Of a stretch of DNA of 64,000 nt, positions 36,225-40,765 are shown piece by piece. A program made the translations under genes and the position numbers. Location of the stretch: the NCBI GenBank assembly GCA_963752155.1, contig CAVVXH010000010.1, forward strand, positions 584,888-648,887, written 5' to 3'. Within the stretch, counting starts at the first letter, position 1; each line of letters starts with the position of its first letter. This stretch comes from an uncultured Parachlamydiaceae bacterium. GTDB taxonomy: Bacteria > Chlamydiota > Chlamydiia > Chlamydiales > Parachlamydiaceae. The notes under the pieces are model-generated. The model had not been told where the DNA came from and did not search any database. It saw only the letters and a program-made list of their open reading frames with translations.

Positions 36225-38006
36225 ATGTCAAATCTCGAAATTCTTAAAATCCATAGGCTCAGAGGCCCTAACATTTGGTCCAATCGTCCAAATCTTGAAG
36301 CTTGGATTGATCTAGGAGATCTTAAAGACACCCCCTCAAATAGCGTTACAGGGTTTTGTGATCGCATTAAGCGATGGTTTCCAACGATGATTGAACATCG
36401 TTGTTCTATTGGGACCCTTGGAGGATTTTTTCAACGACTTGATGAAGGCACATGGCCTGCGCATATTTTAGAGCACTTAGCCATTGAATTACAAACTTTA
36501 GCCGGTCACGATGTCGGATTTGGGAAAGCGCGTGAAACATGTGTCGAAGGGTTATACAAAGTAGTCATTGCTTATTGCAATGAAATTGTTGCTGAATGTT
36601 GCCTATGCGAAGCTCGCGAAATTTTACTTGCAGCCTATGCAGGGAGAGAGTACGACATTACCGATGCAATCTTTCGTATGAAGAAGGTTGTGGCTCAATA
36701 CACGTTAGCTCCCATCACAAAGGCGATATTAGAGGCTGCAGAGGAGAGGCAAATCCCTTGGAGATCTTTACAAAAAGGGTTTGAAATTTTTCAATTTGGG
36801 CAAGGGATCCATCAACGACGAATCCAAAGCGCACAAACAGATCACACCAGAGCCCTTTCAGAACATATCGCCGCTCATAAGGAATTGACGGGTACTTTTT
36901 TGCATCATGCTGGTATTCCTTTTGTCGAAGAAGAGGATGAAGTCAATCAGATCCTCGGAAATAAATACCAAGTACTCATTGTTAATAGTAAGCTTGTTGT
37001 TGCACAGAGTAATTCTGAACACGTTGAAGATGTGACAGAGCGCGTACATCCCCATAATCGTGAACATTTTATTAAAGCTGCACAAGTAGTTGGTCTGGAT
37101 ATTTGCGGGATTGATCTCATTTGCAAAGACATTTCCATGGAGCTTGAAAAGCAAAATGGAGCCATAGTCAGATTGCATGCAGGTTCGTCATTATTTTTAC
37201 ATTTAAAACCCATTGCTAATAAGATAAATCTGATTGGTAAAGAGATCGTAGAGTTGATCTATCCTGAAGGAAAAGAAACTCGTGTCCCTCTTTTTGCCAT
37301 CGCAGGTTCCAAAGGTAAGACGACCACAGTACAACTTATCTCCCACCTATTAAGTTCTACAGGTAAATTCATTGTCTCATGCAGTAGCAAAGGTCTGCAG
37401 TTTGGTGAACGTTTTGTAAGAAGGAGCGATGGTGATCGTCTTGCTGGCTCGCATGGGGTCTTGTTACATCCTCAGACAGAAATTGCCATCTGTGAAGCGA
37501 GTCCTGAAATGATATTAACAGAAGGTCTCGGCTTCGATCGGTGTAATATCGCTGTGGTATTAAATGTCTTTAAAGATGATCTTGGCCTTTGTTACATAGA
37601 TACAATGGACAAAATGTCAAAAGTGCATCGTTGTGTTGTCGATATAGTTCCGGCTGAAGGAACTGCCGTGCTGAATGCAGATGATCCCTTTGTTGCTGAA
37701 ATGGTGAAATATTCTAAAGGGCAAGTGATCTATTTTTCTTGTAATTCTTCAAATCCCCTGTTAATTGCCCATCGAAACAAAGAGGGGAAAGCTGTCTATT
37801 TGCAAGACGATACTATTTATTTGGCTGAAGGTAATATTGAACGCAGATTGTGCAAATTAACCGAGATTTCTCTTGCATTCACTGAGCATTTCGGCTTATT
37901 CATTGAGAATGTCCTAGCAGCCGTTGGGGCAGTCTGGGCTTATGGTCTAAGGGACTGTTCAATAATAACTTGTATGATTGGGCAACGCGAAAGCTCCCGT
38001 GGTTAA
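36225..38006 (+). CDS. cphA: cyanophycin synthetase-like protein 1 (intact N domain, deleted ATP-grasp subdomains, MITE-altered C-terminus)
   Basis: LRGPNIWS, HRCS...HILEH...ELQ, GKARET, GS.GKTTT, GL.FDRC..AVV.N, VLNADDP. Confidence 0.8.
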   Translation: MSNLEILKIHRLRGPNIWSNRPNLEAWIDLGDLKDTPSNSVTGFCDRIKRWFPTMIEHRCSIGTLGGFFQRLDEGTWPAHILEHLAIELQTLAGHDVGFGKARETCVEGLYKVVIAYCNEIVAECCLCEAREILLAAYAGREYDITDAIFRMKKVVAQYTLAPITKAILEAAEERQIPWRSLQKGFEIFQFGQGIHQRRIQSAQTDHTRALSEHIAAHKELTGTFLHHAGIPFVEEEDEVNQILGNKYQVLIVNSKLVVAQSNSEHVEDVTERVHPHNREHFIKAAQVVGLDICGIDLICKDISMELEKQNGAIVRLHAGSSLFLHLKPIANKINLIGKEIVELIYPEGKETRVPLFAIAGSKGKTTTVQLISHLLSSTGKFIVSCSSKGLQFGERFVRRSDGDRLAGSHGVLLHPQTEIAICEASPEMILTEGLGFDRCNIAVVLNVFKDDLGLCYIDTMDKMSKVHRCVVDIVPAEGTAVLNADDPFVAEMVKYSKGQVIYFSCNSSNPLLIAHRNKEGKAVYLQDDTIYLAEGNIERRLCKLTEISLAFTEHFGLFIENVLAAVGAVWAYGLRDCSIITCMIGQRESSRG

Positions 38007-38109
38007 GCGATCGAAAGTGGCCCCATATTATAATATGGGGCTACTTTCGATCGCTTAACCACGGGGCTTTGGCGCAGCCCAATCGTGCAAGTTATTGTTG
38101 AACAGTCCC
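37951..38109. mobile_element. family E MITE (159 bp, near-perfect palindrome, TAA target duplication)
   Basis: GGGACTGTTCAA...TTGAACAGTCCC with TAA at 37948-37950 and 38110-38112. Confidence 0.9.
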
Positions 38110-38158
38110 TAAAGGATTTAGAGATTGCTGACAGGCTTCGTTTTAGCAGAGAAATGTG

Positions 38159-40765
38159 ATGAAAATAGCTGAAATTTCTTCTTCAGTACAGCCTGCTTTA
38201 ATTCATAAAGTATTAGTTTTGCGCGGGCTCAATATTTGGAGTTCTCAAAAGGTTCTTGAATGTTGGGTGCAATTTCCTTCAATAAAGCAGTTTTTGCCTA
38301 GTTGGAAAAACGCTCTTTTCACATTCATGCCAGAAATTGAGCCCGATTTAAATGAAATAGGCCCTTCTCCAGATAAATACGCACTTGCAACGTTGCTTAA
38401 ATCGATCACTCTCCATTTGCAAAAGTATGTGAATCCAAAGATCTGCTATGGAAAAGTAGCTAAATGTTCTTTGCCAGAGACCCTGCGCATCATTATAGAA
38501 TATGATGAAGAGGAAATCGGACGTTCTGCTTTAGACCATGCTTGTCATTTATTGGAAGCAGGACTTTTTGGTAAAAATTTTAATCTACGCGAATCGATCG
38601 AATCCTTGCGCGAGTTGGCTCACCAAGTTTGTTTAGGTCCTAGCACCATTGCTATCGTGGAGGCTGCATTAGCTCGCGGAATTCCTGTTACAAGATTGAC
38701 GAAGAGAAATCTCGTTCAGCTTGGGTGGGGTTCTCGGCAAAAAAAAATCCTTGCCTCAGCAACTAGTCAAACAAGTGCGCTTTCTGAAGAGATCGTTCAG
38801 GATAAGGAATTTACCCGGCTTTTACTCGATGAAATCGGATTGACGGTGCCTCGTGGGCGTTATGTTGTGTCTCCAGAAGATGCATGGGCCGCTGCATTAG
38901 AGATCGGAGTGCCCGTTGCTGTGAAGCCTCGTGATGGAAACCAAGGGCGTGGAGTTATCTTAAATTTATCTAGTCAAGACCAAGTGGTTGCTGCATATGA
39001 ACTTGCCCAAAAAGAAAGTGAATCGATCATTGTTGAACAGTATATATTTGGTGAAACGTATCGTCTACTTGTTGTCGGAGAAAATTTTGTTGCAGCTTCA
39101 CATTGTCGTCCTCCGCACGTTGCAGGAGATGGTATTCAAACGATTCAAGAACTCGTCGATGAAGTGAATCTTGACCCTCGTCGCGCTTGTAATCATGCTG
39201 GAGCTCTGAGCAAACTTGTAATCGATAATGTCGCTTTAGGGGTGCTCAATGAACAGGGGGTAACGCCTAACTCAATCCCCTTGAAAGGTCAAATCATTCA
39301 GATTCGTCGAAATGGTAACTTAAGTACCGGAGGTACTGCAGAAGATGTTACAGATTTAGTGCACCCCTCTATTCGTGCTGTGGCTATTGAAGCTGCGAAA
39401 ACTGTAGGGCTCGATGTTTGCGGAATCGACATCGTAGCTCACGATATCAGTCAGCCTCTTAGTGAACGCAATGGAGTGTTCATTGAACTTAATGCACGCC
39501 CCGGTTTGCGTATGCATCTTCATCCTTCTGTGGGGAAGTCTCGACCCGTTGGCAAAGCTATTGTGGATTCACTATTTGCCCCTAATGAAAATGGTCGTAT
39601 CCCCATTATAGCTGTGACCGGAGTGAATGGTAAGACAACGACCACACGCTTTATTACTCATCTGCTCAGTCAAGTCGGTTGGACCGTAGGGACCTGTAAT
39701 TCAGATGGAATTTTTGTCGGAGACCGAATTCTCGATACTGGAGACTGCAGCGGCCCTAAAAGTGCACATGTTGTCTTGGGAGATCCCTTTGTCGATGTCG
39801 CAGTGCTTGAAACTGCACGAGGAGGGATTCTCAGAGAAGGGGTGGCTTTTGATTACTGTGACGTAGCGGTTGCAACTAACATCGGGTTAGGAGATCACTT
39901 GGGGATCGATGAAATCAATACCCCAGAGGAACTTGCTATAGTTAAACAATGTATATTTAATGCTGTTCCTGACCATGGGACCCTTGTAGTAAATGCGACC
40001 GATCCTCTAGTCGTTAAAATGGCGGACATGCGTCCGTGCCGCACGATTTTCTTTGCTCCTGATAGCCAAAATGAACTGATTCGGCATCATCGTCACATAG
40101 GTGAACGTGCAGTTTTTGTACGAGAGGGCCATGTTATTCTCGCAGAAGGAGAAAGTGAATCAGTTCTTTTGCCTCTCGCTGAGGTGCTGCTCACGCAAGA
40201 AGGGAAAATAGCTTTTCAAATCGAAAACACCCTTGCTGCTATTGCCGCTTCTTGGGCTTTGGATATCAATCAGGATCTTATCCGTCAAGGTGCACGTAGC
40301 TTTACATCGAGTTTTGAACATAATCCTGGACGTTTTAATGTGTTGGAGTTTAGAGGTGTGACAATTGTGGTCGATTACGGCCATAATATTGATGCTCTCC
40401 GTTCCTTGTTGGAAGCTTTGCGTCTATTTAATCATTTGCGTCGACTTGTGGCTTATAGTTCGGCAGGGAATCGTCGAGATTGTGATATTATAGAACAGGG
40501 GCGCCTTCTTGGTGCCGAATTTGATGAAATCTGGCTCTATGAAGGGGAATATGTCAGAGGTCGTCAGCCTGGTGAGATCATGGAGCTTATTGCTTTAGGC
40601 TTGAAAGGCGCTACGCGAACAAAACGGATTGAGCAAATTCAGGGACATCGTAAAGCGATTGGTTTGATATTGGAAGCCGCACGACCAGGAGACCTAGTGA
40701 TGATTCAGGCAGACGTTGTTGGGGACACCGTCAAGTATTTGAAAGAAACGTTGGCGGAATACTAA
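38159..40765 (+). CDS. cphA: cyanophycin synthetase (ATP-grasp plus Mur-ligase domains)
   Basis: LGPST.AIV.AA..RGIP, VKP.DGNQGRGV, NLSTGG, PGLRMH, VTGVNGKTTT, ETARGGILR, DYGHN. Confidence 0.93.
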   Translation: MKIAEISSSVQPALIHKVLVLRGLNIWSSQKVLECWVQFPSIKQFLPSWKNALFTFMPEIEPDLNEIGPSPDKYALATLLKSITLHLQKYVNPKICYGKVAKCSLPETLRIIIEYDEEEIGRSALDHACHLLEAGLFGKNFNLRESIESLRELAHQVCLGPSTIAIVEAALARGIPVTRLTKRNLVQLGWGSRQKKILASATSQTSALSEEIVQDKEFTRLLLDEIGLTVPRGRYVVSPEDAWAAALEIGVPVAVKPRDGNQGRGVILNLSSQDQVVAAYELAQKESESIIVEQYIFGETYRLLVVGENFVAASHCRPPHVAGDGIQTIQELVDEVNLDPRRACNHAGALSKLVIDNVALGVLNEQGVTPNSIPLKGQIIQIRRNGNLSTGGTAEDVTDLVHPSIRAVAIEAAKTVGLDVCGIDIVAHDISQPLSERNGVFIELNARPGLRMHLHPSVGKSRPVGKAIVDSLFAPNENGRIPIIAVTGVNGKTTTTRFITHLLSQVGWTVGTCNSDGIFVGDRILDTGDCSGPKSAHVVLGDPFVDVAVLETARGGILREGVAFDYCDVAVATNIGLGDHLGIDEINTPEELAIVKQCIFNAVPDHGTLVVNATDPLVVKMADMRPCRTIFFAPDSQNELIRHHRHIGERAVFVREGHVILAEGESESVLLPLAEVLLTQEGKIAFQIENTLAAIAASWALDINQDLIRQGARSFTSSFEHNPGRFNVLEFRGVTIVVDYGHNIDALRSLLEALRLFNHLRRLVAYSSAGNRRDCDIIEQGRLLGAEFDEIWLYEGEYVRGRQPGEIMELIALGLKGATRTKRIEQIQGHRKAIGLILEAARPGDLVMIQADVVGDTVKYLKETLAEY

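Follow-up and report, generated by a model that had tools for sequence, protein, structure and literature searches.

Cyanophycin synthetase (CphA1) is commonly presented as a single polypeptide that combines three active sites. The Cx19HxxEH motif of its N domain occurs in 83% of CphA1 proteins, and is a marker of primer independence rather than a family-defining feature. Here, we describe a pair of cphA-like genes from an uncultured Parachlamydiaceae bacterium in which these sites are carried by two proteins. The pair lies within a stretch of 64,000 nucleotides (GCA_963752155.1, contig CAVVXH010000010.1, positions 584,888 to 648,887; hereafter the window). The upstream gene (gene 1, an A-type or CphA' paralogue) carries the motif and has lost large parts of the ligase domains, and the downstream gene (gene 2, B-type) has both ligase domains and no motif. 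We consider it probable, with moderate confidence, that gene 2 polymerizes and that gene 1 supplies the sole endopeptidase site, which would make the primers, the product being probably exported.

The modular organization of CphA1 has been defined for TeCphA1, which is divided into N (residues 1–161), Gcore (162–234, 306–324 and 400–487), Glid (235–305), G-omega (325–399), Mcore (488–723) and Mlid (724–876) (Miyakawa, 2022, PMC9427784). According to the same report, the substrate aspartate (Asp) is bound by N394, S396 and R458, Gcore forms the main dimer interface, and removal of Mlid substantially reduces activity. The CphA1 N domain is a proven endo-cyanophycinase, described as slow, and the isolated N domain of SuCphA1, supplied in trans, was reported to relieve the motif-less TmCphA1 of its need for primers (Sharon et al., 2022, PMC9262961). 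In two Betaproteobacteria, Cupriavidus basilensis 4G11 and Acidovorax sp. 3H11, the genes cphA and cphA' are cofit with those for an ATP-binding cassette (ABC) transporter and a DUF1854 protein, and an exported cell-wall polymer has been proposed (Price et al., 2016, bioRxiv 10.1101/072470). The tandem cphA1/cphA2 genes of Sideroxydans (PMC5178258) belong to the same betaproteobacterial group of systems.

The chlamydial system shares with the betaproteobacterial module two old CphA paralogues, a fused ABC exporter and DUF1854, all four genes being present in the genome, as well as the location of the N-site motif on the first gene and not on the second, and the lack of a cyanophycinase. It differs in that the exporter pair is located ~274 kb away, in that the A protein lacks Glid and G-omega, and in its chlamydial host and Verrucomicrobiaceae donor clade. 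Compared with CphA1 (SuCphA1, 7LG5/7LGJ/7TXV; TeCphA1, 7WAC/7WAE), gene 2 shares the N-G-M layout as well as the G and M residues (phmmer E-value 5e-174 to 7WAC). Gene 1 shares the C-H-H zinc site and the N-Mcore arrangement, its predicted model matching these structures with template modelling (TM) scores of 0.74–0.76 (Foldseek). Whereas one chain houses the three sites in CphA1, the two ligase sites are here on a different protein from the peptidase site, gene 1 being devoid of Glid, G-omega and Mlid. By analogy, the rescue of motif-less TmCphA1 by a separate N-domain peptidase could serve as a working model; it was nevertheless an engineered in vitro mixture, unlike this natural, co-inherited gene pair, in which gene 1 also possesses Mcore and a Gcore remnant. 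Cyanobacterial CphA2 (7TA5, 8FXH/8FXI) is likewise a reduced CphA paralogue found beside a full CphA1. However, CphA2 is described as having an active G domain, no N-site motif and a cut-down M domain (Sharon et al., 2022, PMC9262961), which is the opposite of the gene 1 pattern, and the TM score is just 0.42–0.44.

Domain anatomy and active-site residues

The features of the pair, all on the forward strand, are as follows.

36225..38006, +, gene 1, A-type (CphA') paralogue, 593 aa; N domain, Gcore remnant and Mcore
36225..36704, +, gene 1 N domain, residues 1–160, with the zinc-peptidase site (Pfam, residue table)
36402–36404 and 36462–36476, +, gene 1 C60 and H80-I-L-E-H84; further site residues H58, F68, R71 and E88
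36705..37283, +, gene 1 Gcore remnant, residues 161–353 (alignment to CphA1 structures)
36924..36956, +, 11-residue linker, residues 234–244, in place of the ~70-residue Glid (K261, P-loopG with H267)
37005..37025, +, 7-residue linker, residues 261–267, in place of the ~80-residue G-omega (large loop, N394/S396)
37284..37946, +, gene 1 Mcore, residues 354–574, with the P-loop GSKGKTTT at 37305–37328; no Mlid follows
38156..40765, +, gene 2, B-type full-length CphA1, 869 aa; start codon GTG 38156 or ATG 38159
38636..39598, +, gene 2 G (ATP-grasp) domain including Glid and G-omega (alignment, residue table)
39599..40762, +, gene 2 M (Mur-ligase-like) domain, Mcore and Mlid (Pfam, residue table)

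In gene 1, the N-site is complete, with the eight equivalents of H57, C59, F67, R70, H79, E82, H83 and E87 all present and the motif spaced as C60-x19-H80ILEH84. Pfam recognizes only Cyanophycin_syn (113 bits) and Mur_ligase_M in this protein, neither ATP-grasp nor Mur_ligase_C being found, and the protein fails the CphA1 profile (NCBIfam NF010623 / TIGR02068), reaching 592.1 bits in two stretches for a cut-off of 877. It can be aligned to CphA1 chains (7LG5) only over residues 2–234, 305–320 and 402–710. Set against the published module borders (Miyakawa, 2022), these blocks identify the two in-frame gaps as Glid and G-omega, and the end of the protein as the start of Mlid. Gene 1 is thus N + Gcore + Mcore, deprived of exactly the three mobile modules.

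The remaining ligase parts of gene 1 are altered as well. In Gcore, the equivalents of K220 and D431 are retained, K261, H267 and R269 are deleted, and five residues, Mg and transition-state residues included, are changed (R309 to Q, E450 to R, N452 to H, G456 to S and R458 to F). In the M-site, K499, T500 and E558 have their equivalents and H586 is replaced by D. Judged from these residues, gene 1 is likely dead for both ligations with an intact peptidase site and, having lost the three mobile modules and the catalytic residues of Gcore, it would be left with no activity other than that of a peptidase, carried by an N + Mcore scaffold. In an AlphaFold2 (AF2) model built with 48 sequences (mean predicted local distance difference test, pLDDT, 70.7), the N domain is mostly at 80–95 and Mcore at 80–96.

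Gene 2 passes both CphA1 profile cut-offs (1023.3 bits for 877, and 905.2 for 850). Its G-site (K220, K261, R309, N394, S396, G398, G399, D431, E450, N452, G456 and R458) and its M-site (N497, K499, T500, E558, N581, D585, H586, R731 and H748) are complete, and it breaks few invariant columns (0/10, 4/83, 3/58 and 2/28). ATP-grasp, Mur_ligase_M and Mur_ligase_C are all detected by Pfam, the N domain (PF18921) remaining below threshold with 20.7 bits for 27. The Cx19HxxEH motif is absent, with D, N, T, K and S at the positions of H57, C59, H79, E82 and H83. Gene 2 has Q in place of H267. This might have indicated a dead G-site, a reading that was rejected since seven of the eight stand-alone CphA1 sequences of the residue table, planctomycete ones among them, share the change. 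The two chlamydial proteins align with each other over residues 6–231/16–229 (gene 1/gene 2; 30% identity) and 268–572/396–701 (39% identity). An earlier reading of this DNA, made from the sequence alone, had pointed out the exact C-x19-HILEH of gene 1, two ATP-grasp blocks and the last Mur subdomain missing from it, and a gene 2 with both ligase domains and no motif; each of these observations holds.

Built on anatomy, residue states, phylogeny, domain-specific constraint and the presence of the four module genes, all directly observed, the following scheme can be proposed. Gene 2 would be the polymerase, its ATP-grasp site extending the Asp backbone and its Mur-like site adding the side-chain residue and, by the rule of Sharon et al. 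(2022), it should be primer-dependent for want of an N-domain peptidase site. Gene 1 would provide the only Cx19HxxEH zinc endopeptidase of the system, presumably cutting cyanophycin-type chains to primer length. The two proteins would co-operate, either as a mixed oligomer or in trans, and the polymer would be handed over to the ABC/DUF1854 exporter encoded ~274 kb away, instead of being stored and re-mobilized.

The A/B paralogue system

A scan of species genomes matched at least 600 stretches, 598 of which are relatives, and the best 80 loci were kept. Among these, the 34 loci with two CphA-like genes, which span Verrucomicrobiota, Betaproteobacteria, Myxococcota and Planctomycetota, follow a single pattern: Cx19HxxEH is carried by the first gene (A) and missing from the second (B) (34/34). 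The motif is present at all 46 single-gene loci, and in all of the 120 best A-type proteins. In a 57-sequence tree, A and B separate into two clades whose branching runs parallel across Verrucomicrobiota, Myxococcota, Planctomycetota and Betaproteobacteria. Every B sequence of the set keeps all checked G and M residues and misses C59 (21/21), and the N-site is kept in every A sequence (28/28).

The 119 nearest relatives of gene 1, mostly from Verrucomicrobia and 688–773 aa long, have the same C-terminal end and no Mur_ligase_C, so that the apparent C-terminal truncation of gene 1 is a family trait and the normal end of verrucomicrobial A proteins. In the A proteins without Mlid (n = 18), the M-site has decayed, K499 being lost in five and H586 in nine, and the full-length ones (n = 9) retain it. 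Gene 1 represents the extreme of this trend of ligase decay among A proteins. The complementarity of A and B and the absence of the last Mur subdomain are inherited from this widespread paralogue system; what is specific to the lineage is solely that Glid and G-omega (129 core columns) have been lost. Hence, the complementary active sites that the sequence-only reading had seen in a chlamydia are real, but they are no chlamydial invention, since all 34 two-gene loci are alike.

The lid-less gene 1 speaks for the N-site, borne on the N/Mcore scaffold, as the conserved function of A. Going further, A-type proteins could be the dedicated endopeptidase of a make-and-export machine, cutting the chain made by B both to primers and to export-length oligomers for ABC/DUF1854. 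The lid-less chlamydial protein would then be a natural deletion experiment showing the ATP-grasp and Mur modules to be dispensable, and the exported cationic polymer would serve the envelope or a host-facing surface rather than a nitrogen store. This extended proposal is tentative, and we hold it to be rather unlikely as a whole.

The pair represents a large and barely studied branch of the family, in which three sites are split over two co-evolving genes with an exporter alongside. In the literature searched, no description was found of an N-site confined to one of the two paralogues, of the module in chlamydiae, or of DUF1854 beyond the report of Price et al. (2016). The chlamydial protein is the most reduced A subunit of this analysis, with the peptidase site and N/Mcore scaffold selected and the ligase parts gone, which points to the function of A. 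Being small and tractable, it appears suitable for probing the role of the A paralogue.

Several observations on other members of the family can be added. In the 27 A sequences other than gene 1, R458 and five residues of the G-omega large loop, which are the parts that hold the incoming Asp in TeCphA1 (Miyakawa, 2022), are lost. P0110, a verrucomicrobial A-type protein of 688 aa, lacks 31 internal residues and with them the D431 region of Gcore, owing either to another G-domain lesion of independent origin or to a faulty assembly. P0122 (1493 aa) was examined as an A-B fusion and rejected, as it joins two tandem genes by read-through and includes a frameshifted stretch. A search for free-standing N-domain proteins below 326 aa gave 128 matches, most of which are fragments at contig ends and a few of which lie on long contigs. 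Among the latter, P0253, P0254, P0255, P0263, P0328 and P0330 (153–293 aa, contigs of 0.1–2.6 Mb) consist of the CphA N domain only and may be genes for free-standing peptidase domains.

Constraint on gene 1 and the repeat element at its 3' end

The verrucomicrobial homologues are saturated (GC 0.60 vs 0.42), and constraint was gauged by counts of broken invariant columns and by a relative-rate test. Compared with the 27 other A sequences, gene 1 breaks none of the 30 invariant columns in N, 20 of 59 in Gcore and one of 14 in Mcore, the other sequences breaking at most four, four and two, respectively. Against 47 closer relatives, the corresponding values are 5/56, 23/69 and 3/38, for at most three, three and five in the others (median 0). 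In the relative-rate test with its sister P0002, which has an intact G domain, and a Prosthecobacter outgroup, unique changes numbered 14 in gene 1 vs 20 in P0002 for N (p 0.30) and 17 vs 30 for Mcore (p 0.06). In Gcore they numbered 42 vs 13 (p 9e-5), an acceleration of about threefold. The picture is unchanged with two other outgroups. Neutral evolution of gene 1, which the sequence-only reading had named beforehand as part of the outcome that would tell against it, is not what is observed. These comparisons indicate that gene 1 is not drifting, N and Mcore evolving no faster than in the intact sister and the Gcore remnant alone being accelerated.

The 3' end of gene 1 has been remodelled by a mobile sequence, which defines two further features.

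37948..38112, no strand, 165-bp near-perfect palindromic repeat element, resembling a miniature inverted-repeat transposable element (MITE) or a repetitive extragenic palindromic (REP) sequence (fold, copies, borders)
38115..38159, +, displaced original 3' tail of gene 1, reading DLEIADRLRFSREM in the gene 1 frame, with the stop codon TGA at 38157–38159

The element folds with -146 kcal/mol (z -18.3), and the genome contains at least 12 full-length copies with 88–97% identity (for example on contig C21 at 84105–84269 and on contig C8 at 60781–60945 of the own assembly, G000) plus dozens of half copies; further copies are found in a genome of the same genus, G133. Its borders at 37948 and 38112 are backed by loose ends in contigs from a DNA run. 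The 19 codons with which gene 1 now ends, and its TAA stop, lie within the element, which also takes up most of the spacer between the two genes. The displaced peptide DLEIADRLRFSREM is similar to the C-terminal tails of P0002 and of verrucomicrobial A proteins and, as its TGA overlaps the start codons of gene 2, the genes overlapped stop-to-start before the insertion. The insertion is recent and frame-preserving, having replaced the last ~16 codons of gene 1. Both genes are present in low-depth 151-nt contigs of one DNA run, and a promoter and terminator scan returned sites no commoner than in shuffled sequences.

Gene 1 could alternatively be a decaying leftover, only gene 2, with or without the exporter, having been useful after the transfer, and its modules, Gcore residues and 3' end having been lost stepwise. 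The Glid and G-omega deletions, unique among the 120 A proteins, the broken Gcore invariants, the missing H586 equivalent, the mobile element inside the coding 3' end and the low-confidence model of Gcore are all in line with such a fate. Yet the reading frame is open through 593 codons despite a branch of 0.45–0.56 changes per site, neither the two deletions nor the 165-bp insertion shifts the frame, and GC content at third codon positions (GC3) is fully ameliorated, which implies a long residence. Together with the unbroken N domain, its eight site residues and the unremarkable rates of N and Mcore, these observations make decay an unlikely explanation, and a peptidase subunit under selection remains the preferred one.

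Origin, exporter and genomic setting

The question of a donor, raised by the sequence-only reading, was addressed by phylogeny, in which both genes nest in Verrucomicrobiaceae clades. Gene 1 and P0002 (59% identity) are placed within Verrucomicrobiaceae A proteins with support of 99–100 in the Shimodaira-Hasegawa-like approximate likelihood-ratio test (SH-aLRT). A topology holding Verrucomicrobia apart from these two is rejected by the approximately unbiased (AU) test (delta lnL 41.2, p-AU 0.0011), the constrained group having been chosen after the first tree was known. Gene 2 groups with P0123 and P0124 (support 100) within the verrucomicrobial B proteins of Verrucomicrobiaceae. P0123 is probably the partner of P0002, each being on a 68,832-nt contig, and P0002 and P0123 share with the window genes an AT-rich amino-acid composition. 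The GC3 of gene 1 (0.34) and gene 2 (0.35) is the same as in host genes, the verrucomicrobial homologues having a GC content of 0.60. The ameliorated GC3 and the paired sister genes imply that the transfer is old and that the pair was inherited as a unit. Vertical inheritance within the Planctomycetes-Verrucomicrobia-Chlamydiae (PVC) group was also considered and is rejected by the nested placement of both genes. These trees point to acquisition of A and B by transfer from a Verrucomicrobiaceae-like donor, and it can be proposed that the low-GC lineage leading to this chlamydia would have acquired the four-gene cphA/cphA'-ABC-DUF1854 module as a whole.

A chlamydial host is consistent with the phylum set to which the genome is assigned and with the match of its DnaA to NF009087. 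In the host phylum, the CphA1 cut-off is reached by two of 400 sampled genomes, with two candidates scored per genome: the own genome and G349. The latter, also chlamydial, contains on contig C143 a canonical cluster of an Asparaginase_2 (IaaA-like) gene, an S51 cyanophycinase gene and a three-site CphA1 gene on a very long branch, which suggests that true cyanophycin metabolism was acquired separately there. No CphA match was found in the same-genus genome G133, where folC-PHP-murB-nusB is conserved in synteny and the cphA pair is absent together with the AbiE genes that precede it in the window, the left border of the difference being uncertain.

The remainder of the module is encoded elsewhere in the own genome. 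An operon for an ABC transporter (596 aa) and a DUF1854 protein (157 aa) is located at G000:C10:345073-347339, ~274 kb from the pair and not adjacent to it. The two proteins are 67–74% and 51–58% identical, respectively, to those encoded between A and B in verrucomicrobial loci, and among the 400 genomes of the phylum DUF1854 was found in this one alone. In Verrucomicrobiaceae, A and B lie 2.9–4.1 kb apart with the exporter between them and, among the best 80 loci, a module-type ABC gene flanks 51 and DUF1854 flanks 48, stand-alone planctomycete CphA1s included. Next to the exporter operon of the chlamydia are genes for a HicB antitoxin, two collagen-repeat proteins and a DEAD-box helicase. 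Some verrucomicrobial loci have in addition a protein-glutamine gamma-glutamyltransferase (TGL)-like gene (PF20085, 94 bits) adjoining A, for instance L123 (G403:C4) at 9167–10273. It sits between A and B with ABC and DUF1854, and no counterpart was found in the window, tblastn with the verrucomicrobial neighbour genes (TGL-like, ABC) giving no match there.

The sequence-only reading had also interpreted the pair as a heteromeric enzyme giving arginine (Arg)/Asp storage, perhaps for extracellular survival. The polymer would then be an intracellular reserve, for which the gene 1 endo-cyanophycinase could double as the mobilizing enzyme. Its statement that the window lacks a cyanophycinase gene extends to the whole assembly (3.13 Mb, 22 contigs, 80% complete), in which no Peptidase_S51 was found, and S51 is likewise absent from the five verrucomicrobial genomes examined that have the pair (0/5). 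A cyanophycinase was reported in just 2.8% of 903 betaproteobacterial CphA1 genomes, and unknown isozymes were proposed (Sharon and Schmeing, 2023). A reserve without S51 is thus conceivable, all the more since the N domain is a proven endo-cyanophycinase and the exporter is unlinked here. However, no IaaA, IadA or AstE/AspA-type (CphZ-like) peptidase to complete the degradation was found in the same 80%-complete assembly, the N-domain peptidase is described as slow, and the co-acquired ABC exporter is the best-conserved gene of the module, which suggests that export is still in use. The co-resident ABC/DUF1854 pair and the lack of a known degrading enzyme favour an exported polymer, in line with the proposal for the betaproteobacterial module (Price et al., 2016), and storage appears improbable. 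The product is probably exported through ABC/DUF1854 rather than stored.

A last alternative is that the module lies silent as a whole in this chlamydia, as a relic, or that its product is unrelated to cyanophycin. The pair and DUF1854 are each found in just one to two of the 400 chlamydial genomes, the module is divided over two loci, and the Cupriavidus CphA/CphA' reportedly form no cyanophycin (Adames, 2013, as cited by Price et al., 2016). The four reading frames are nonetheless intact and conserved, and gene 2 retains the substrate-Asp residues (N394, S396 and R458) and the ATP sites, which renders this alternative very improbable.

Several of these data weigh against a division of labour between a gene 2 polymerase and a gene 1 peptidase with export of the product. 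The G-domain ATP-binding residues K220, K261, H267, R269, R309, D431, E450 and N452 are kept in all 27 other A sequences, which implies that A normally uses ATP in some way that is impossible for gene 1; the G domain of A-type proteins might bind ATP for another purpose. The loss of Glid and G-omega is moreover found in gene 1 only (1/120). The Gcore remnant is modelled with a pLDDT below 40 (gene 1 residues 203–332) and, Gcore being the dimer interface of CphA1 (Miyakawa, 2022), assembly of gene 1 with gene 2 is doubtful. The report on Cupriavidus and the unlinked exporter and synthetase genes also weigh against this reading. Finally, the element has broken the former stop/start overlap and placed a perfect hairpin of ~80 bp between the genes, and its insertion may be the next step in a decay of gene 1.

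An environmental chlamydia has acquired from Verrucomicrobia, and kept, a complete putative polymer-making and export module, the two marker families of which were found in one to two of 400 genomes of the phylum. Its bearing would be on envelope or surface biology rather than on nitrogen storage.

Upstream of gene 1, an overlapping two-gene unit at 33821–35186 encodes a 216-aa protein with no Pfam match, in the position of an AbiEi-like antitoxin, followed by an AbiEii nucleotidyltransferase toxin (Pfam, 99.7 bits). These AbiE-like genes have no match in the corresponding region of G133, and a 1-kb gap free of open reading frames (35187–36224) separates them from gene 1. Near the start of the window, a DnaA gene is found at 1139–2527 on the reverse strand (NF009087, 569 bits), which may place the window in the vicinity of the replication origin.

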